In this document: positions 54,972-64,000 of the stretch, piece by piece
Layout: each line of letters begins with the position of its first letter
Position numbering within the stretch: position 1 is the stretch's first letter
Source of the DNA: Escherichia coli
Lineage (GTDB): Bacteria > Pseudomonadota > Gammaproteobacteria > Enterobacterales > Enterobacteriaceae
Assembly: GCF_024700885.2 (NCBI RefSeq)
Contig: NZ_CP117016.1
Length of the DNA: 64,000 bases
Reading direction: 5' to 3' (one strand)
Made by a program: the position numbers and the translations under genes
The notes under the pieces: generated by a model
What the model was told of the DNA's origin: nothing
Seen by the model: only the letters and a program-made list of their open reading frames with translations
The model's database searches: none

Positions 54972-55076
54972 ATGAGTGCAATAGAAAATTTCGATGCCCA
55001 TACGCCCATGATGCAGCAGTACCATTTTTCTATGGTTAACCTGTTGAAATTTAGCAATAAAGTGTTTGGTAAGTAG
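54972..55076 (+). pseudogene. mutS: mutS 5' fragment: first 17 codons of DNA mismatch repair protein MutS, then out-of-gene sequence and a stop
   Basis: ATGAGTGCAATAGAAAATTTCGATGCCCATACGCCCATGATGCAGCAGTA encodes MSAIENFDAHTPMMQQY (MutS N-terminus); after 55022 the sequence turns AT-rich and non-MutS (HFSMVNLLKFSNKVFGK-stop). Confidence 0.85.
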
Positions 55077-55365
55077 ACTCTGGTTTACTGATGGTATACA
55101 TAACATATAGTTATGTTAGCCAAGAACTCGAACTTAATGTGCCTAACTACAGAATGAAAAGTAACGTTGCGATACCGAAAAAATTTGGTGGCGTAAGGAA
55201 GGAATTGAAGTTCATTCATCTCCGTGAATATCTAAATCAATTTAATAACCAATTAAATAATTAGCTGGCTACAAATAACATTGATCTAATTCAATAATTT
55301 AGGATTATGTATTGGAGCTATTGAAAAAGTTGTGTTATAAAGGAAAAAAATCAAGGGAGATTAAA

Positions 55366-55635
55366 ATGTCTATCGATATCAATAAGTTAAAATCAAAATT
55401 AATTGAAGATTATAAATTCGCTGACGAGATTAGCGATGATGAAATCAATATAGTTTTAAGTGAAATACACAAAAAGGGTGCCTCAACACCAAAAGAAGTA
55501 GACGAAATTGTCTATACGGTATTAGAGGGTAAAAGGCATTATGCTTTCGAAAGTCTGGATACATCCAATACTACATCCCTTGCATTACAGTTAATTCAGG
55601 CGGCAAAGGTATATGCTCAAACACAAGGAAGATGA
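55366..55635 (+). CDS. hypothetical small acidic protein (89 aa), first gene of island cargo cluster
   Basis: SD agggaga 6 nt upstream of ATG 55366 (track ORF 55312..55635 is the same frame); no recognisable motif. Confidence 0.5.
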   Translation: MSIDINKLKSKLIEDYKFADEISDDEINIVLSEIHKKGASTPKEVDEIVYTVLEGKRHYAFESLDTSNTTSLALQLIQAAKVYAQTQGR

Positions 55636-56401
55636 AAGCATTCACATAGAGAGTAAAAAAAAACTTGATATGGAATTGCAGTTTTTAATAGATGAGATGC
55701 AAGCTGGGAAGGATAAAAACACTATTCTTCCACTGTTGAATAAACTGCAATTACAGTTTTCGATCTATGTTACTGATTTTGAAAATTTCATCGTTCGAGT
55801 TTCAGAAAATGGGTATTATCGTTCAAAAGGTGAAATAAAAGATGTTTTAATTAGCGTAGAAAATTTTTTAAATTCAAATGCAGTTGTTGCAGAAGCAATA
55901 AATACAGTTTCAAGCATATTCAATTTACCCCAATGTTATCAAGAAGGAAATTTCATAACAACTGCTCAAATAATATTAAGAACACATCAGAAAGAAAAAG
56001 CCGAGGAATTATCTCAAATTTATAAGGATAAAGGATTATCAACAAATGGCTTTGATAGTAAAGAAAAAATTTATTTGAACAGACACGGGTTTGATATGAC
56101 CAGATTTATTTCGTTTATATTAGGATTAATTTGTATACTTTATTTTTTATATGAATACAATATAGGCAATATAAACAATGGTATAAGTTGGTTTAATTAT
56201 AGATTGTTTGTTCCAACTGGATTAGGAGCAATAATATTTTCACTATTTCCGACAACCATGCAATTAAAATTTAGAGCAGGAGTGACAGCCACTGGAATTG
56301 TCGCATTTATTATATTTTTTTATACTGTCAATCCAGCAAAAGTTCCTGATTTTCAACTTCATAATATTGATAGCAATCAATCATCAGAAAAAAACAACTG
56401 A
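55613..56401 (+). CDS. hypothetical membrane-anchored protein (262 aa): about 170-aa soluble N-domain plus about 3 C-terminal TM helices
   Basis: ORF overlaps the upstream gene by 23 nt; hydrophobic segments FISFILGLICILYFLY, LGAIIFSLF, GIVAFIIFFYTV; alternative start ATG 55670. Confidence 0.6.
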   Translation: MLKHKEDESIHIESKKKLDMELQFLIDEMQAGKDKNTILPLLNKLQLQFSIYVTDFENFIVRVSENGYYRSKGEIKDVLISVENFLNSNAVVAEAINTVSSIFNLPQCYQEGNFITTAQIILRTHQKEKAEELSQIYKDKGLSTNGFDSKEKIYLNRHGFDMTRFISFILGLICILYFLYEYNIGNINNGISWFNYRLFVPTGLGAIIFSLFPTTMQLKFRAGVTATGIVAFIIFFYTVNPAKVPDFQLHNIDSNQSSEKNN

Positions 56402-56448
56402 TATCCAAGCGGATATCAGTTTAGATCTTAAAAGGAAAAAAATCCAAA

Positions 56449-56943
56449 GTGAAATTTATAGCATATGCGTTCTTGTCATTTACTATCGCACCAATAATTG
56501 GCATAATTATTGGAATTCCATTTGATAAATACTTACTCAAAAACTATCCAGTAGTTCTTTTCACAGTAATAATTATTTTCTCGTCCTTAGGAATCTACTC
56601 TCTTTACTTGTATAAAAAATCATACAAATATGTTAATGATGCTGTTTTAGCTATCTTTACTGGTTGGGTTGCATTGACATACTTACTCACGGGAGAAAAA
56701 ACAAGTGAGATAATCCCCTCGGAGAAACTAATTGAAACACACCCATTAATGTATTATCTAATAATATTAAAATTAACTATTGTTGCAAATGGGCTTTTGG
56801 CTAAGATATTTATTACATTAAACGAATTATATCATGCTCGTAAAGCTGAAAACAAAAGTGGGAAATATACTGATGTTTTAAAAATGACTATTTCCAGCAT
56901 TAAATCTTTTTTTAATTCTCAGAAGGACGGAGTCAAAAAGTAG
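56449..56943 (+). CDS. hypothetical integral membrane protein (164 aa, about 4 TM helices)
   Basis: GTG start; hydrophobic segments throughout; weak RBS. Confidence 0.5.
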   Translation: MKFIAYAFLSFTIAPIIGIIIGIPFDKYLLKNYPVVLFTVIIIFSSLGIYSLYLYKKSYKYVNDAVLAIFTGWVALTYLLTGEKTSEIIPSEKLIETHPLMYYLIILKLTIVANGLLAKIFITLNELYHARKAENKSGKYTDVLKMTISSIKSFFNSQKDGVKK

Positions 56944-57093
56944 AACAACCCCCATAGGAATTATTAATGCATTCATTGAAATAATAGCAGCAAAAACCAC
57001 TGCTAAATAATCATTCTTTGTGTCATAAAACAAAAACACAACAATATTTAAAAATAACACAAAGAGATAAAAAAGCATATCTTTAATATTCAT
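56878..57093 (-). CDS. hypothetical small hydrophobic protein (71 aa, 2 TM helices)
   Basis: Strong SD aaggagg 5 nt upstream of ATG (MNIKDMLFYLFVLFLNIVVFLF...); 3' end overlaps the convergent 56449..56943 ORF by 66 bp. Confidence 0.5.
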   Translation of the reverse strand: MNIKDMLFYLFVLFLNIVVFLFYDTKNDYLAVVFAAIISMNALIIPMGVVLLFDSVLLRIKKRFNAGNSHF

Positions 57094-57689
57094 AACAGCC
57101 TCCTTTTTTCTAATTTGATAATTTACAAATATCTTAATATAACGAAAAGTCAACTTACCCGATAAAAAATAGTTATTAGAACACCTTAAACTGATAATTA
57201 CATTAATAAATGCGAGTGATGAAATTTTTGAGTGAGATCATAAATTGTTGAGGCGTAAAGTTGTTGATATACCTGCTGTTCTGGTAAGTACTGCCATAAT
57301 AAAGGGCTGGTCTCCATCTGGTTTACTGCTTATATTTGTAGCTATGCTACTTAAGTGCTCTGTCGTTATATTGGGTATACATAATGCCCAAAAATCATTA
57401 TCGGATATTATTGAATCATCTAATAAGACGATGATTTTATTCACGAAAGATAATGCCAATGATGATGACGAAGCATTAACCAACCGTATTAATCAGATCA
57501 CAACCGAAGCTTTAACCAAACTCAGTAATAAAAAAGTTGATGCTGAAAAAACCTTGAATAAGCTCTAATGGTTGATTTTCATTGGTGTATCAGTCTGGTC
57601 TATGTTTGTTTTATATCAATTCAAAGATAACATAATCCCAGTTATTGAATTCGCCTATGAGCATATAAAGAGTTTCGTTACTTATTTAT

Positions 57690-57760
57690 TAAGCAAGGGC
57701 TAACTCATCGAAGCTCCGCTTCTTTGAGTTCCCTTGTTTTTCGCCCTTCGGTTGAAAAAG
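57690..57760. promoter_or_regulatory. candidate origin of transfer (oriT): nested inverted repeats upstream of mobC
   Basis: gcaagggctaactc ... gagttcccttg arms flanking the gaagc-tcc-gcttc hairpin, followed by cgcccttcgg; position matches oriT placement in mobC-mobA modules. Confidence 0.4.
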
Positions 57761-57784
57761 AAAGTCAAAGTCTAACCTAACTCA

Positions 57785-57812
57785 TTGACATGAATTGCAT
57801 TTCCACTATAAA
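57785..57812 (+). promoter_or_regulatory. sigma-70-like promoter for mobC-mobA
   Basis: -35 ttgaca (57785-57790), 16-nt spacer, -10 tataaa (57807-57812); strong SD aaaaaggag before mobC ATG. Confidence 0.5.
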
Positions 57813-57876
57813 TATATAATGTGTTGCAAAGGAATTGCTTACTTTAAAGCGAATAAAAATATAAAAAGGAGTTTAT

Positions 57877-58260
57877 ATGGGTAAAATAATAACATTGTCG
57901 TATACAAATAATTTTAAGCCTATTAGCGATAATAAATCTCAATCATTGCGAATACACTGTGTAAGTGTACGATTAAATAAAGAAGAGTTAGAGCTTCTCA
58001 ATGCAAGCCGTGGTGATAAACGCAAAGGTGAATGGCTTCGCATGGCATCACTTCAAAAGCTTCCTCCGACCATTCCTACAATCAATTTAGAAGTTTGGCA
58101 ATCATTGTCTGATATATCTCAAAAGCTAAACCGTCTAATAATCCACCTTGATACTAAAAGCAGTAATAGTGAACTGACGAAAACAGAGATCTTCGCTGTT
58201 AAAAAGCAGATTAAAGAGCTTCGCTCATGTCTTACAGGTTCTGATCCGTCCGTAAGGTAG
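57877..58260 (+). CDS. mobC: MobC-like relaxosome accessory protein
   Basis: 127 aa; segment VSVRLNKEELELLNASRGDKRKGEWLRMASL resembles the conserved MobC core (VRLxxEE...L...A); immediately upstream of the relaxase. Confidence 0.7.
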   Translation: MGKIITLSYTNNFKPISDNKSQSLRIHCVSVRLNKEELELLNASRGDKRKGEWLRMASLQKLPPTIPTINLEVWQSLSDISQKLNRLIIHLDTKSSNSELTKTEIFAVKKQIKELRSCLTGSDPSVR

Positions 58261-58268
58261 TTATTCGC

Positions 58269-59450
58269 ATGAAAGGAATGCAGAAGATCAAAAGGGGTAA
58301 GAGCTTCTCAGGTGTGGTTCTCTATGTGTTAAAGCCAGGCTCACACCATAGAACCGTTCCAGAAGTAATTGGTGGCAACATGACAGGTGATTGCTCACAA
58401 GAGTTAATCGACGAATTTAACCTTACGAAAGAGCTTCGCTCAGATGTGGCAAAACCTGTTTGGCACAATTCACTTCGATTACCCCAGGGAGAATCTCTTA
58501 CCAACGAACAATGGAAACGAATTGCTGACGATTACATGAAGCGAATGGGGTTCGGTGATACACACCTCCGTTGCTATGTTCTTCATGATGATCAGGCTGG
58601 TCAGCACATACACATTATTGCAAGTCGCATAGATCTCAATGGCGGGAAGCTCTACTTGGGTAGGAACGAAAACCTCATCAGCACCCGCATAATCAGTGAA
58701 CTCGAATTCGCTCATGGTCTGACAGTGACCAAGACAGCCTCTTCAATTGCACCAAAGCAACCGAAGCGGAAGAGAATCTCTCGCAACGAACAGATGCTAT
58801 CAGAACGAACTGGTGTTCCCTGCCCCAAGAAGTCCCTTCAACAGATCATAGATAAAAGTTTGGCAGATACACCTGACCTTTTAACTTTTATCAAGAGGCT
58901 GGAAGAAGCAGAAGTAGGCTGGACGGCGAATGTCGCAAGCACAGGTAAAATGAACGGGTTCTCTTTCGAATACACAGGAATAGCTTTCAAAGCTTCCCAG
59001 TTAGCCAAGAGCTATTCATGGGCAAATCTTCAAAAGCAGCTTAACTACAACCCGGATCACTTAGAAGCTCTGCGAAAGGATATACAGACCAAGGAAGTTC
59101 CTGCTCCTGTTCCTGTTCCTGTTCCTGTTCCTGTTCCTGTTCCTGTTCCTGTTCCTGCAGAACCGATAGCAAGAACGGCCGCCCAGATCGAAAGCATAAG
59201 TGAAAAAATTGCCGAACTGGAACTACGACTCAAAGAAGACAGAAGAAACGAAATCGTAGAAAAGATTCTTCAAAAGAATGCAGCCAAACAGCAAAAGCAT
59301 CTCAGGCTCACCGGCTGGATTCCCTTTTTACAACGGCTCATAGAGCTTCTCAGAAAATATGGAAGGAGCATCCTCCACAAGGTTCCTACAAACTTCTTAG
59401 AAGTCTATTCAACCCATCATCTGAAACCTACAAGAAAAATTCGTTTATAG
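58269..59450 (+). CDS. mobA: MobA/VirD2-type HUH relaxase (mobilisation nuclease)
   Basis: 393 aa; N-terminal Tyr region KSFSGVVLYVLK; three-His motif HDDQAGQHIHIIASRID; coiled-coil C-terminus. Confidence 0.85.
   Translation: MKGMQKIKRGKSFSGVVLYVLKPGSHHRTVPEVIGGNMTGDCSQELIDEFNLTKELRSDVAKPVWHNSLRLPQGESLTNEQWKRIADDYMKRMGFGDTHLRCYVLHDDQAGQHIHIIASRIDLNGGKLYLGRNENLISTRIISELEFAHGLTVTKTASSIAPKQPKRKRISRNEQMLSERTGVPCPKKSLQQIIDKSLADTPDLLTFIKRLEEAEVGWTANVASTGKMNGFSFEYTGIAFKASQLAKSYSWANLQKQLNYNPDHLEALRKDIQTKEVPAPVPVPVPVPVPVPVPVPAEPIARTAAQIESISEKIAELELRLKEDRRNEIVEKILQKNAAKQQKHLRLTGWIPFLQRLIELLRKYGRSILHKVPTNFLEVYSTHHLKPTRKIRL
59100..59159 (+). repeat. hexanucleotide tandem repeat: 8 perfect CCTGTT units (59106-59153) flanked by CCTGCT and CCTGCA
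   Basis: Encodes PAPVPVPVPVPVPVPVPVPA linker inside the relaxase. Confidence 0.95.
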
Positions 59451-59702
59451 ACAGCTAGTTATAAACACCTTTCGTAACATAACTTAATTACCTAGTGATA
59501 AATTTGTGTTTAGTCAAGAAAATATTGATCGTTATTACAGATCGATATCAATATTATGATAGCCTAAACCTATCGTAACTTAGACATCGATCGGTACAAG
59601 TGATTTTACTAAAGATAATTATTCATCGAGAATCCCTGAAAAGAGCCTGATGATTTTTAAGCAATAGCAGTATCAGGAACCGATTGTAAAAATGGAGTTA
59701 AT

Positions 59703-59981
59703 ATGAATAACGAAACCATTAAGTGTCCGTTCTGCTTCAAAGAGAGCCAGTTTGGTGTCCGTGTTTGTACCGGCTGTCATTCAACCATCAAATATGGCGA
59801 AGTTTCACCTTGGTTATCTTTACTAATAGGATTTATTTTATTAGCCATTGCTTACATCATACTTTATATAAGTCAAAGTTTTTTAGTAGCTCTCGTTATT
59901 CTTTTAACATTAATGATTTCTACAAGATTGTATATTCGTAAAAAATTTGCACACAGAGCAGTTTTCACTCACCAACATTAA
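59703..59981 (+). CDS. hypothetical zinc-ribbon membrane protein (92 aa)
   Basis: N-terminal CPFC...CTGC zinc-ribbon-like pair then two TM helices; SD tggag before ATG. Confidence 0.55.
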   Translation: MNNETIKCPFCFKESQFGVRVCTGCHSTIKYGEVSPWLSLLIGFILLAIAYIILYISQSFLVALVILLTLMISTRLYIRKKFAHRAVFTHQH

Positions 59982-59999
59982 GAACAAAAGGGATTTAAC

Positions 60000-60314
60000 A
60001 TGAAAGCATATGCTATGCTAACAATCATTCTTTCTACTTTTCTATTAACTGCATGTAATAGTGAACCAAGTCAAGATGATATCTACAATGCATTCAAAAG
60101 TGTTGTAGATAAAACCAATGCCAGCATGAAAGCTTTTGATTCAAGAGTGTCAGAAAAAGACCTTTTAAAAATCGATTATGTAAAAAAAGTAAGCTGTTCG
60201 GAAGAAGCAAACAATGTTTACAACTGCATTGTCGATGCTTCTATTAGCAACAATAAACAGACGAAACCAATTAAATTAGTTAAAGCTGATGGTGTCTGGA
60301 AAGAAGTTCAGTAG
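60000..60314 (+). CDS. hypothetical lipoprotein (104 aa)
   Basis: Signal peptide with lipobox LLTAC (MKAYAMLTIILSTFLLTACNSE); SD aaggga; terminator follows. Confidence 0.6.
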   Translation: MKAYAMLTIILSTFLLTACNSEPSQDDIYNAFKSVVDKTNASMKAFDSRVSEKDLLKIDYVKKVSCSEEANNVYNCIVDASISNNKQTKPIKLVKADGVWKEVQ

Positions 60315-60337
60315 TAGCCTATATCAAGAAGTCTCTT

Positions 60338-60362
60338 TTAGCCCCTGCACAGGGGCTTTTTA
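60338..60362 (+). terminator. rho-independent terminator after the lipoprotein gene
   Basis: agcccctg-caca-ggggct hairpin followed by ttttta. Confidence 0.7.
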
Positions 60363-60366
60363 TTGC

Positions 60367-60801
60367 CTATAACCTGACGGCTCTTACGCGAACTTCATGG
60401 GTTAACTCTTTCTCGATTACTTTCATTTCATATTGTGCTCTGACAGTAGCATAGATTTCTTCTGCCATTTCTTGATTGCTATCGATATAGTTAACGAGAG
60501 AGTTTAGCTCCCTGATAACAGCTTCCTTATTGTTTAATCGTTGTAGTAGATTGCTTGTTAGGCTTTTGTATACAGAGCTAAACATTGCCATGACATTGTC
60601 TATGTTACGATTTGATTTGGAATAAATTTTTTTAGGATAGAAATATTTTAAATGGTATCCCACAAAAATTAAGTAAAGCTGATATGAAAAACTTTTATCA
60701 TGTGGCTGATATCGTTTTGATATGTATTTATCTACAATGATAACAAGCTGTTCTTCCAGTGTCATCACTGAATTATAATTGGTTTTGTTCATAAGTTGCA
60801 T
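60367..60801 (-). CDS. hypothetical protein (144 aa), last gene of recombinase-strand cluster
   Basis: ORF with ATG; no recognisable motif. Confidence 0.5.
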   Translation of the reverse strand: MQLMNKTNYNSVMTLEEQLVIIVDKYISKRYQPHDKSFSYQLYLIFVGYHLKYFYPKKIYSKSNRNIDNVMAMFSSVYKSLTSNLLQRLNNKEAVIRELNSLVNYIDSNQEMAEEIYATVRAQYEMKVIEKELTHEVRVRAVRL

Positions 60802-60894
60802 CCTTGCAAAATTTGATTTTGTCTTCCTGACAATACATATATAATTACCACATATTTAAAAAACATCAATAGACAAAACCTATTGATGTCAAAA

Positions 60895-61278
60895 TTATTT
60901 TTTGTTTTTGGGAAAAATTTGATCTTCTCTAATACATTTACCATATGCAACCATTTGAAGATCTCTAACCATAAGTAGAAGCCTGTTATTTTCACTAACT
61001 AACCTCGAATTTTCTGTTTCTAATTTACTGATTTTATTCGAAGCATAGGCAAGACTTTGAGGACTTTTAATATGCTTAACAGTTTCACCTTTAGTTCTCT
61101 TTTTCTGCTGATATGCATAAGCTATTACTGTATGTCTTGAAAGAGCCTGTCTCGTTGGTTTTTTACCGAAATGATCCTCTACGGAATCACAAAGACTGAC
61201 CCAAGTTAAATCGCCTTCCCAGCCATTTATTTTATCGAGAACGAATTCAATATCTTCCTTGTTAAACTTTTTACTCAT
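60895..61278 (-). CDS. small coiled-coil protein downstream of the recombinases (TnpC-like position)
   Basis: Start at MSKKFNKEDIEF (track ORF starts 10 codons earlier); overlaps the upstream recombinase gene; C-terminal heptad-like region KISKLETENSRLVSENNRLLLMVRDLQ. Confidence 0.55.
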   Translation of the reverse strand: MSKKFNKEDIEFVLDKINGWEGDLTWVSLCDSVEDHFGKKPTRQALSRHTVIAYAYQQKKRTKGETVKHIKSPQSLAYASNKISKLETENSRLVSENNRLLLMVRDLQMVAYGKCIREDQIFPKNKK

Positions 61279-62917
61279 TATGTTCTCCTCTAAGATAATA
61301 ACTAACAATATGATTTATAATTTTACTAACTTCTTGGATTTCCTTTTCAACATAATTCGCTTTCTGTGAATTATATTGGCTTCTGTATAAATTATTCTTT
61401 TCTTCAAGCGTTTGTAAATGGTCTTTAATTTTGCAAATAATATCATCCTTACTCCCTCCACCTAAATCAGAAATCATTTCATCAGCAAATAATACTCTTC
61501 GTTCGTTTTGTCGCAACTCCTCCCAAGTTCGGTTATCATACACATTATTTTGTTCAACATTTTTCCTCCCTGACCAAAAAGCTATTTCTATATCAGAGAG
61601 CATAGCTCTTTGAGCAAGAGTGTTTAAAAGATGTCTTGGCTGATGACTACTAAAAATCTCTTTCATACCATTGGGTTGTAATGTTTTATGTCGTTGAAAA
61701 AAATTTAAGGTAGTTTCTTTTTCTGACCTTTTTTTAAAATCAGCAATAAACATCTTTTTATTTGCGGGTAAGACACAGAATAAATCAATTCCTTTCTTTA
61801 AATGTAATTGATCTTTATTTAGGATTAACAATCTATTACTAAGGTTTATAGATTTTGAAAATTCATCCCAAGATTTTGTTTTATCGCTATAATTAAAAAC
61901 TTCATTCCAAAATTCTTTTGCACTAAGAATCCCACTCTCTACCCTCATTAATATATTTTTAGTTTTAACATTGAAGCAGTCCATACAGTTTAGATTTAAA
62001 AGCTTATACAACTTTGTATGAAAATATCGTCCATTCTCATCAGTCTCTAAACTCTTATAAAACTCCAATTCTCCTTTTTCTCGTAGGGTAGCTATGCACC
62101 TTGCCGTTTGTGATAATACCCTTAATCTTTTAATGGCTAATTTTGCTATTGAATGCATATTCCTTGGAATCCACTTTATACTTTCACCATAGCCTTTTGC
62201 ACTATGATAACGAATGCCATAGGAGCCTTTCCCCTCTATGTCGTTCCCTTCAACTTCACAATCCACCTCAAGACTCAGGACTTCTGATATTCGTGTTGGA
62301 GCACAAAGAAGCAGTGCGATGATAGATGTTGTAAATATATCTCTTTGGCTTTTATCATTAGAACTAAAAACCCTACCAACAAGATCTATGACTTCCTCTT
62401 CTGGTAACTTATTTTTAATTTCTTTTTGCCCTATAAGATCTCTTACAGCTTTATTTCTAATTATTCTAAGCCTGGAGTTAAACTTACTTAATTTTGGATT
62501 TATTATGTTATTTATAGCTAACACTTCTAAAATATTCTTTAATGCCTTTTCAATAGCCCCCGCACGACTATTAGAATATTTCTTTTCTACTTGGAATAAA
62601 ATGTTGTTGATAACCTCAGAATTAATATTAACAATATGTGGTTCTACATTCAAAGTGAAGAATGAACTTTCCATAATTTTTATGACCGCCAAATAAAGTA
62701 ATGATTTACTGAGATTAGGGAAACACTCTCTATATATAATAACCTTTGATAATTGTTGAAAATGCGCTCCCATGTCTTTATCTTTTTTTATATGATTGTT
62801 ATTTTTAAATGAAACCCCTCTACCCCATGACAAATCATCCCAATTTATAATATTTTCTTTTTTTGCCTGTATCCTTACTTCATTAGCTAAAACATCATAA
62901 TTATTATAATGACTCAT
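61271..62917 (-). CDS. tyrosine recombinase, large (548 aa; Tn554 TnpB-like size and position)
   Basis: Catalytic region HQPRHLLNTLAQRAMLSDIEIAFWSGRKNVEQNNVYDNR (HxxR ... Y); box I candidate PTRISEVLSL; 14-nt overlap with upstream recombinase. Confidence 0.8.
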   Translation of the reverse strand: MSHYNNYDVLANEVRIQAKKENIINWDDLSWGRGVSFKNNNHIKKDKDMGAHFQQLSKVIIYRECFPNLSKSLLYLAVIKIMESSFFTLNVEPHIVNINSEVINNILFQVEKKYSNSRAGAIEKALKNILEVLAINNIINPKLSKFNSRLRIIRNKAVRDLIGQKEIKNKLPEEEVIDLVGRVFSSNDKSQRDIFTTSIIALLLCAPTRISEVLSLEVDCEVEGNDIEGKGSYGIRYHSAKGYGESIKWIPRNMHSIAKLAIKRLRVLSQTARCIATLREKGELEFYKSLETDENGRYFHTKLYKLLNLNCMDCFNVKTKNILMRVESGILSAKEFWNEVFNYSDKTKSWDEFSKSINLSNRLLILNKDQLHLKKGIDLFCVLPANKKMFIADFKKRSEKETTLNFFQRHKTLQPNGMKEIFSSHQPRHLLNTLAQRAMLSDIEIAFWSGRKNVEQNNVYDNRTWEELRQNERRVLFADEMISDLGGGSKDDIICKIKDHLQTLEEKNNLYRSQYNSQKANYVEKEIQEVSKIINHIVSYYLRGEHNE

Positions 62918-63881
62918 TATTCATGCCCTCCTTGTTGAGCAATTCGATTATTTTATTTATTTTACATTCTAACATTGTGAATAAGTCCGTTAGGATTTCA
63001 AAGTCTGCTTGCTTCGTATAATCTGCTATTAATACTCCAGTAAGCTTTTTTATGATTATCAAATCGTCAACCAATCTAAGGGTAATGTCGTCACTGTTTT
63101 TTAAAAATGAGGAAATATAAGGGCTTACTAACTCATTTATTGCCTGATCTATTCTGAATGAAAACTCTTCATTGTTTTTTGCATACGACAATACTGATTT
63201 CAAATTGCTATGATCTAAAGCTTTTGCTATCGTACCTAATCCATAACCTTTAAGTGCAAGCCTTGTGGCTAATGTAACCCTAAGTTGCCGAGAGTTAATC
63301 TTTTTATTTTTATCTTTACTTACCCTTTGGCAAATGGCCTGAACCCTACCGGTTATCCTCTTAGAACTCATATGCAAATTGAAGAAGTTATTTTCATATA
63401 ATTTATCAAGTTTGTAAGTCGAGTTAAAAAAACAAGGATCAATAAAGAGGGGTAAATTGTTTAATTCATCTTCACTTAATATATCGCCTACCTCACCCTG
63501 CACAAAAACCTTAACTACTGATTTAAGCTCTGATAGTGAATTGAACAAATTATCCCCTATACGCAATTCGGAAAAATCAGTTCTGAAACTATCTCCTTGT
63601 TTTAATCTGGGTATGTTTAAAAAATTACCATTTTCTTTGATATAAAGATCCTTCCTTTTTAATTGAGCGATCTGCATTGGTCTTCGCCCCGAATATATCA
63701 TCAGCATGACTAAAAGGTAGTCATTCATAGTCATATTTCCATCATTGTATTCCTTTGTCATGCCCCCAATTAGGTTCTTCAGTTCGTATTCAGATAATGG
63801 TCTTAAAGACTCTTTTCGCTCAATATATGCAGTTGTCTTGTTGGGTTTAGTTACTTTCCATTTTAAAATCAAATCCAGCAT
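62904..63881 (-). CDS. tyrosine recombinase, small (325 aa; Tn554 TnpA-like size and position)
   Basis: Box I YSGRRPMQIAQLKRKDL; box II/Tyr region LRVTLATRLALKGYGLGTIAKALDHSNLKSVLSYAKN. Confidence 0.8.
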   Translation of the reverse strand: MLDLILKWKVTKPNKTTAYIERKESLRPLSEYELKNLIGGMTKEYNDGNMTMNDYLLVMLMIYSGRRPMQIAQLKRKDLYIKENGNFLNIPRLKQGDSFRTDFSELRIGDNLFNSLSELKSVVKVFVQGEVGDILSEDELNNLPLFIDPCFFNSTYKLDKLYENNFFNLHMSSKRITGRVQAICQRVSKDKNKKINSRQLRVTLATRLALKGYGLGTIAKALDHSNLKSVLSYAKNNEEFSFRIDQAINELVSPYISSFLKNSDDITLRLVDDLIIIKKLTGVLIADYTKQADFEILTDLFTMLECKINKIIELLNKEGMNNESL

Positions 63882-64000
63882 TTCTTGATCTATGAATTCA
63901 TTATTTAACTCATAATGTTTTATTATAAAATACTTTAAACTTTCAACATGTGTATAGCTTATTTTATAATATGCATTGTAAAATCTATTTAGTAATCCAT

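Follow-up and report, generated by a model that had tools for sequence, protein, structure and literature searches.

A putative mobilisation module with a candidate origin of transfer in a GInt-type genomic island at mutS of Escherichia coli

Background

How a genomic island that encodes no conjugation machinery of its own might pass from one bacterium to another is the question raised by a 64,000-nucleotide stretch of Escherichia coli DNA (RefSeq assembly GCF_024700885.2, contig NZ_CP117016.1), referred to here at its full length as the window. The window is E. coli chromosome, running through core genes from nrdE to ygbA and then into an island of 31% G+C; the RefSeq record 100% identical to it is that of E. 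coli MLI114, in which both of the mob open reading frames (ORFs) discussed below are annotated as coding sequences. An earlier reading of the sequence, made without database searches (the sequence-only reading), had placed a self-contained mobilisation module at 57690-59450, consisting of a candidate origin of transfer (oriT), a MobC-like protein and a relaxase. Our analysis indicates that this is very probably a MOB module, the part of an integrative mobilisable element (IME) that processes its DNA. The island has the gene content of such an element, namely recombinases, flanking att repeats, a relaxase and a candidate oriT, with no genes for mating-pair formation or coupling. To the earlier reading we add that the module is part of a backbone with a GInt-type recombinase trio, on a defence island at mutS.

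GInts have been published as having no known transfer route. Papers from 2017, 2023 and 2024 describe them and related multi-recombinase islands as lacking conjugative determinants, with transfer of GInts not reproduced, and the original 2017 paper and its supplement make no mention of a relaxase. Hochhauser et al. count GInts among the defence islands "with unclear mechanisms of mobilization", and their supplementary tables attach the automatic label "IME__GInt" to some islands. In E. coli, islands of this type carry anti-phage defence systems. An enterobacterial clade of GInt-type islands with a conserved module of MobC, relaxase and candidate oriT offers a testable transfer route with a sharply defined candidate site of 80 nt, and the variable slot beside that site is a place in which to seek new defence genes.

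The mob operon

The larger of the two mob genes (58269-59450, + strand) encodes an HUH relaxase of 393 amino acids. Residues 19-151 match the whole of Pfam PF03432 (model positions 1-132 of 132; independent E-value 1e-26), the MobA/VirD2-like nuclease domain of the MOBP/MOBQ superfamily. The sequence-only reading had recognised the relaxase by a three-histidine motif and an N-terminal tyrosine, and had made its call depend on a significant match to a relaxase family, which this is. The motif, HDDQAGQHIHII, occupies residues 106-117 (58584-58619) and the tyrosine is Y19 (58323-58325). In an alignment with 20 homologues, with identity down to 36%, Y19, H66, H106, H113 and H115 are invariant, and Y19 together with the histidines of the HxDx(n)HxH motif would make up the catalytic set expected of a relaxase. 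The nuclease domain is followed by a second conserved domain at about residues 172-257, a linker of PV repeats and a long C-terminal helix. The protein is full length beside relatives of 376-397 amino acids, and more than 3000 homologues were found, mostly on enterobacterial chromosomes.

An AlphaFold2 model of the relaxase (pLDDT 80.7) has as its top match in the PDB the minimal relaxase of MobA from R1162 (2NS6), with a probability of 1.00, an E-value of 3.7e-3 and a modest target-normalised TM-score of 0.43 over 185 columns, the identity in the structural alignment being only about 13%. A phmmer search of the relaxase against PDB sequences returned no relaxase, merely low-complexity matches to the PV repeats. 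Among the NCBIfam models there is a partial match to TraI_MobP_relax (E-value 1.8e-18), and by these profile scores the protein appears to be related to the TraI_MobP_relax, Bacteroid_MobB and MbpB families but a member of none of them.

Two further features of the relaxase gene may be recorded. The linker is encoded by the hexanucleotide GTTCCT, repeated 10.2 times in frame (59097-59157, + strand), and homologues carry runs of PA or PV; since the length of these runs varies, in-frame slippage polymorphism is suggested. The G+C content of the gene is about 44% (window positions 58001-59000) against 29-32% in the rest of the island (55001-64000), and this excess suggests that the gene differs in origin or is more strongly constrained in composition.

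The smaller gene (57877-58260, + strand) lies on the same strand, 8 bp upstream of the relaxase gene, and encodes a relaxosome accessory protein of 127 amino acids that resembles the MobC/NikA proteins of ribbon-helix-helix (RHH) type. For comparison we fetched 55 loci with relatives of the relaxase, one per species genome, and in 51 of the 55 an accessory gene is found directly upstream of the relaxase gene. The description of the protein as MobC-like holds as to its kind: residues 25-92 are 46% identical to the annotated MobC of IncQ2-type plasmids (tblastn, E-value 1e-10), and among 21 aligned homologues five match the Pfam NikA-like family PF21983 (best 4.1e-10) and two match MobC, PF05713 (best 1.7e-6), at E-values of 0.001 or less. 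The motifs R.HCVSVRLN..EL..L...RG...KGEWLR and QKLN are common to the protein and 20 homologues. The support is weaker than had been stated, the protein's own Pfam match not being significant. Its AlphaFold2 model consists of an extended segment, short helices at residues 35-45 and 50-58 and then two long helices, with no strand in the monomer; the two short helices follow the conserved R.HCVSVRLN segment, as would be expected for an RHH domain. By transitive homology only, then, the protein can be assigned to the MobC/NikA type.

Upstream of the pair is a sigma-70-type promoter (57785-57812, + strand), with TTGACA at 57785-57790, a spacer of 16 nt and TATAAA at 57807-57812. The near-consensus promoter of the earlier reading is thus borne out at 11 of 12 consensus positions, and the same TTGACA-16-TATAAA arrangement lies upstream of mobC in loci from Erwinia, Pantoea, Brenneria, Pectobacterium, Klebsiella and Citrobacter. 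Our own promoter scan omitted it because the scan accepts only T as the sixth base of the -10 element. Between the promoter and the ribosome-binding site there is an inverted repeat, GCAAAGGAATTGC (57826-57838, + strand). At the homologous position other loci have AGCATAAGGAATATGCT or AGCATATGGATTTGCT, so that the palindrome is kept while its arms change, and the repeat is a candidate for an autoregulatory operator bound by the RHH accessory protein or for a hairpin in the 5' untranslated region.

The candidate origin of transfer

The sequence-only reading had noted nested inverted repeats upstream of the gene for the MobC-like protein, and two adjacent hairpins are indeed present, hairpin 1 at 57694-57736 and hairpin 2 at 57737-57759. 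As DNA the region folds with -15.9 kcal/mol against -7.9 +/- 2.2 for shuffled sequences (z = -3.6), and two of 200 shuffles fold as well. This single-window statistic is only moderate; the comparative conservation is decisive. A block of about 80 nt precedes the relaxase gene, in the same orientation, in 43 of 53 species loci, at 700 bp or less from the relaxase start in 31 of those 43. Its layout is AAGCAAGGGCTAAC-(stem-loop)-CCTTG(C)-TTTTTCGCCCTTCGGTTGAAAAAG, and the hairpin forms in every copy when each sequence is folded alone. Folding had to be done singly, as RNAalifold run on a MAFFT alignment of the blocks missed the hairpin because variants with short and long stems were misaligned.

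The first part of the block (57691-57736, + strand) contains hairpin 1, in which the outer stem with its bulge, AAGCAAGGGCTAAC/CCCTTG, is nearly invariant over more than 40 loci. The inner stem, ACTCA..GAAGC/GCTTC..TGAGT, covaries, with the compensatory pairs ACTCA/TGAGT, ACCAA/TTGGT, ACTGA/TCAGT and ACTTA/TAAGT, and in the outer stem the pairing CAAGG/CCTTG is replaced by CCAGG/CCTGG in Pseudomonas plasmids. The second part (57737-57770, + strand), TTTTTCGCCCTTCGGTTGAAAAAGAAAG, is the candidate nick region and includes a small second hairpin, TTTTTC/GAAAAA. This flank is kept 3' of hairpin 1 in most loci; a second allele, TTTTCTTCCTTnnAGTCAGAAAA, also occurs, and the small stem covaries. Across genera in which the relaxases are only about 47-50% identical, the sequence itself is kept in the 5' arm and its bulge, AAGCAAGGGCTAAC, and in the 3' flank, CGCCCTTCGGTTGAAAAAG.

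Two complete plasmids of Pseudomonas without gin genes, L064 (NZ_CP077984.1) and L065 (NZ_CP118679.1), also have the block upstream of a homologous mobC-relaxase pair; the site thus goes with the mob genes and not with the recombinases. Both plasmids are typed as "non-mobilizable" by MOB-suite (per PLSDB) despite their mobC-relaxase pair and block, and MOB-suite typing therefore appears able to miss this relaxase family. Taken together, the 43 of 53 loci and the gin-less plasmids make the block the best candidate for oriT, and block 57691-57770 is probably that site. The placement of oriT in the sequence-only reading is thus strongly supported by conservation across genera, and the site should be lengthened to 57691-57770.

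The same hairpin may be read as an intrinsic terminator, or as an insulator against read-through from cargo genes, in which case the mob genes would be real and oriT would lie elsewhere, for example at the promoter and operator repeat (57785-57838). The hairpin is G+C-rich and is followed by four to seven T residues, the upstream cargo genes in E. coli islands are co-directional with it and end just before it, and an RNA stem would covary too. A terminator, however, needs no conservation of sequence such as AAGCAAGGGCTAAC and CGCCCTTCGGTTGAAAAAG show between such divergent relaxases. In L064, moreover, the block lies between two diverging genes, some 30 bp ahead of the start of the accessory gene, so that there is nothing to terminate, and the hairpin is apparently downstream of a promoter-like TTGACA (found by eye). 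This placement favours a DNA site for the relaxase, that is an oriT, over either a terminator or a recombinase end, and we regard a block that serves for termination with oriT elsewhere as unlikely. The functions of terminator and oriT are not mutually exclusive.

One orphan copy of the block was seen in E. coli AR24.2b (L067, positions 9001-9081), where the surrounding island carries integrases, ParB-like genes and a type I restriction-modification system. No mobC or relaxase gene lies within 9 kb of it, a fragment of an insertion sequence (IS) lies 320 bp downstream, and similar short matches occur in other strains; this copy would be what is left of a decayed module or else a hitcher that has oriT alone.

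A model for mobilisation

On the reading that we prefer, in which the module processes the DNA of an IME, the sigma-70 promoter would drive a two-gene operon for the MobC/NikA-type accessory protein and the HUH relaxase of the MOBP/MOBQ superfamily. The island would excise as a circle by means of the adjacent Gin-type recombinase trio, the integrase near mutS, or both, and the accessory protein and relaxase would assemble on the hairpin block at 57691-57770 of that circle. The relaxase would then cut one strand just 3' of the hairpin, with Y19 as nucleophile and H106, H113 and H115 as metal ligands, and would stay on the 5' end. A conjugative plasmid or integrative and conjugative element (ICE) in the same cell would lend its coupling protein and type IV secretion system for the export of the relaxase. 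The hairpin at the trailing end would be recognised for re-joining, after which the recombinases would integrate the element. In this scheme binding, the position and strand of the nick, the excising enzyme, the identity of the helper and transfer itself are the parts that we infer.

The need for a helper follows the gene content. No genes for a type IV secretion system or a coupling protein are present in the window, as had been claimed, the rest of it being core chromosome from nrdEF to ygbA, and none are present in the island beyond the window. The earlier description of the element as mobilisable in trans therefore fits its predicted genes, a relaxase and an accessory protein with neither secretion nor coupling functions. 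The module otherwise appears conventional and, judged by its genes, helper-dependent.

Several observations weigh against this model. No helper element was identified. With a + strand nick on the 3' side of the hairpin, transfer would bring the mob genes into the recipient first, which is the reverse of the arrangement in RP4. The window's accessory protein has no significant Pfam match (the best, NikA-like, has an independent E-value of 0.64), and a Foldseek search with its model gave no match at an E-value of 0.001 or less. The relaxase falls far below the cut-offs of all the NCBIfam relaxase equivalogs, scoring 66.8 bits against 250 for TraI_MobP_relax (NF041893), 71 against 400 for Bacteroid_MobB (NF041325) and 41.7 against 400 for MbpB (NF041420). 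Hairpin 1 followed by a run of T has the form of an intrinsic terminator. No nick motif of the ATCCTG type known from MOBP was seen by eye in 57691-57770, no pattern search having been made. The published MOBQ oriT consensus, NWACCNNTAAGTGCGCCCTYNN, which ends in GCGCCCTY (PMC3832669), shares with the block only the core CGCCCTY (CGCCCTT here), or 7 of 22 nt, and the nick position is therefore one that we infer. Finally, the site is not universal, as a sub-clade of loci (L005, L016-L019, L052 and L060) lacks the block. The relaxases of this sub-clade are 52-57% identical to that of the window (six full-length matches), and its members share another upstream region, GGTATAC...GTATACC, which is possibly a second type of oriT.

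The relaxase and hairpin might instead serve mainly for the maintenance of the excised island within the cell, by starting rolling-circle replication or by priming the complementary strand as a single-strand initiation signal. In some ICEs the relaxase also drives the replication of the element once it is excised, and the nearest plasmid relatives of the window's protein are relaxase-primase fusions of IncQ type, the protein itself having no primase part. On the other hand, a partner of MobC/NikA type and a hairpin followed by a conserved flank form the canonical layout of a relaxosome. Near-identical elements also occur in different genera (L037 and L038, 98.8% over 16.4 kb; L030 and L031, 90-95%), which indicates recent horizontal transfer. 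We think it very improbable that intracellular maintenance is the main role of the module.

The island at mutS

Comparison with an empty site shows that the island, 17.8 kb long, interrupts mutS within its first 50 nt. A 14-nt direct repeat, ATGATGCAGCA(G/A)TA, stands on either side of the island. At the left junction (54972-55021, + strand) the first 50 nt of mutS are left behind beside ygbA, cut off from the rest of the gene, and end in the repeat copy ATGATGCAGCAGTA at 55008-55021. The second copy, a replacement start codon for mutS and the point at which mutS resumes come only after 17.8 kb, beyond the end of the window (L001, 30804-30860). The far end of the island thus gives mutS a new start and 19 different N-terminal codons, MKESASKDLSDHTPMMQQY in place of MSAIENFDAHTPMMQQY. 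There is no third copy of the direct repeat at the inner boundary of the island.

The site is hotspot #8 (mutS-ygbA), a catalogued defence hotspot that is occupied in 27 of 1322 genomes (Hochhauser et al. 2023, supplement). A literature search for a defence hotspot between ygbA and mutS gave nothing in main texts; it is in the supplement of Hochhauser et al. that it appears. The rarity of islands at this site bears on another explanation, that the module is an inactive relic inherited with the island and left with no compatible helper or excision function. To that rarity may be added that the exact island was found in only two complete genomes, that no helper is visible, and that the orphan block beside the IS fragment in E. 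coli AR24.2b shows that such modules decay. Other features speak against a relic: both ORFs, the promoter, the ribosome-binding site, the block and the invariant catalytic residues are intact, and the recombinase genes are full length. We give the relic explanation very little credence, and the intactness of these parts supports a module for the processing of IME DNA.

Downstream of the relaxase gene are three small backbone ORFs (59703-59981, + strand; 60000-60314, + strand; 60367-60801, - strand), lying between it and the recombinase cassette. Their homologues occur in the same order in many loci, and none of the three received an assignment from NCBIfam, PADLOC or PHROG. The cassette itself begins at 60895 and continues to the end of the window at 64000 on the - strand, with a ginD-like gene at 60895-61278, a ginC-like gene at 61271-62917 and a ginB-like gene that runs from 62904 off the window; a ginA-like gene is next, outside the window. 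The genes stand head to tail and encode proteins of 430 (ginA-like), 456 (ginB-like), 548 (ginC-like) and 127 amino acids (ginD-like). The island has four annotated genes of recombinase type, of which two, the ginA-like and ginB-like genes, match tyrosine-recombinase models. The ginC-like protein has no match in Pfam or NCBIfam; the literature describes GinC proteins as divergent.

Of the 36 loci with enough flanking sequence, 21 have two or more of the four gin genes downstream of the relaxase. The ginC product of the sister island L003 is 63% identical to that of the window, and the ginD product 79%. The ginC and ginD genes of L003 and the ginD of L063 are listed as ginC-ginD blocks in Additional file 10 of Idola et al. 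(2023); in the portion of that file covered here, the window's own gin accessions were not found. By gene order, then, the cassette appears to have the ginD-C-B-A arrangement of GInts, and it is tied to the published Gin proteins through those of sister islands rather than by direct comparison.

The backbone unit is about 8 kb long (L001, 15692-23654; equivalent to window positions 57691 to about 65650). Its far end, past ginA and outside the window, is a perfect palindrome, ATATATTCACCTTAAGGTGAATATAT (L001, 23611-23654), and two elements from Erwinia (L035 and L043) have a different palindrome at the equivalent end. The stretch of about 7 kb from ginA to mutS, also outside the window, contains tRNA genes, a nuclease-helicase pair and the fourth recombinase. 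Just past ginA are tRNA-Asp(GTC), tRNA-Val(TAC) and a tRNA-like fragment (L001, 23682-23837; equivalent to window positions of about 65681-65836). These tRNA-Asp and tRNA-Val genes are annotated in strain 4/4 as well and are absent from the annotation of NCTC8623, and the island of a mussel strain is without them and keeps only their last few bases. Between the gin cassette and mutS (L001, 24714-30656) follow the ATP-dependent nuclease and UvrD-helicase pair and the fourth tyrosine recombinase. Judged from the annotated products alone, the pair is putatively Gabija-like. Strain G47-1 (L063) has a similar set of nuclease, helicase and integrase beside the mob-gin backbone at another chromosomal site. 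Because the tRNA genes, the nuclease-helicase pair and a further recombinase lie between ginA and mutS, the 17.8-kb island may be composite.

Cargo and distribution

Between the left end of the island and the candidate oriT there is a variable cargo slot (55022-57690, + strand), which here contains four small ORFs (55312-57703) for proteins of 107, 262, 164 and 107 amino acids, some of them hydrophobic by eye. PADLOC, PHROGs and NCBIfam gave no functional assignment to any of the four. In sister islands at the same site this slot is filled by retron Ec48, DUF4297-HerA, TIR or HNH genes, and the four ORFs of the window may therefore form a defence cassette not yet described. Between the block and the mobC promoter, cargo genes occur in ten loci.

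At all 13 of the boundaries examined, sister elements become homologous at the 5' edge of the hairpin or no more than about 10 nt away from it, and the homology runs past ginA. This had raised the idea that the block is the terminus of a GInt, which we rejected as the main reading: the block accompanies the mobC-relaxase pair in plasmids and islands that lack gin genes, the element shared by L037 and L038 runs 8 kb beyond the block, and the other end of the unit is an unrelated palindrome with no related sequence. Recombination between two oriT copies by the relaxase was likewise rejected as the cause of the breakpoints, which fall at the edges of the block and not at the presumed nick. A bolder and unlikely proposal is that the enterobacterial GInt-type elements are mobilisable GInts, built of the hairpin oriT, mobC, the relaxase, the small ORFs and ginDCBA, that would spread by hijacking conjugative plasmids, with the hairpin acting not just as a nick site but as a fixed junction at which defence cargo is swapped. 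The swap might proceed, for instance, through single-stranded intermediates made by the relaxase and used by strand-biased Gin-type recombinases. A swap junction of this kind would account both for homology that starts at the hairpin edge at every boundary and for cargo on either side of an intact 80-nt block.

A query of 1.36 kb (57690-59050), which takes in the block, the accessory gene and the greater part of the relaxase gene, has matches in 716 of 5426 complete E. coli genomes. The matches fall at 969 places, some covering the block alone; every one is chromosomal and none is on a plasmid. A megablast search of the module against plasmids also gave no match, relatives on plasmids being found at the protein level only.

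Comparison with known systems

Among plasmids the closest parallel is with the IncQ2 type, represented by pGNB2 and by the qnrS2 plasmids of 7.6-9 kb from Aeromonas, Klebsiella and Salmonella. These have the same gene order, mobC followed by the relaxase gene, with a non-coding region upstream of mobC as in the window. Their MobA, typed as MOBP by MOB-suite in pGNB2, is 42-43% identical to the window relaxase over residues 6-256 and shares its second conserved domain after the nuclease domain. The IncQ2-type relaxases, however, are fused to a primase and carried on replicons, whereas that of the window is chromosomal and has a PV-repeat linker and a helical tail, and the region upstream of mobC in pGNB2 is without the conserved block. 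The two Pseudomonas plasmids with the block, L064 and L065, have relaxases 47-50% identical to that of the window.

R1162 (RSF1010), the prototype of MOBQ, provides in its MobA the solved structure closest to the predicted relaxase domain. Its oriT is laid out in a similar way, with an inverted repeat and a C-rich nick core a few bases further on, the window sequence being TCGCCCTT. In RSF1010 mobC is divergent from mobA, unlike the arrangement in the window. The MOBP systems of R64 (NikA/NikB) and RP4 (TraJ/TraI) pair an RHH accessory protein with a relaxase of the Y...HxDx(n)HxH pattern, as is seen here. The link to NikA is made by homologues of the window's accessory protein that match the Pfam NikA-like family, and that to TraI by the TraI_MobP_relax score, which is far under the equivalog cut-off.

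The published GInts (2017) have an operon like ginA-B-C-D with cargo after ginD, as does the window island, and insert into the end of a host gene with imperfect repeats of 10-17 nt, again as here. They differ in two respects: they were published as lacking conjugative determinants, whereas the clade of the window carries a relaxase module, and their ginA lies at the edge of the element, beside attL, whereas about 7 kb separates ginA from the mutS junction in the window island.

A 2017 review stated that no canonical relaxase-only IME had then been described in Proteobacteria. More recently, Ares-Arroyo et al. (2026, bioRxiv) reported many iMOB islands, together with 52 new families of oriT regions, from E. 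coli and five other species. The iMOB IMEs resemble the window island in having a relaxase without mating-pair formation genes in a chromosomal island of E. coli, and in having an oriT candidate in the first large intergenic region upstream with defence genes adjoining it, and the block described here may be among those 52 families.

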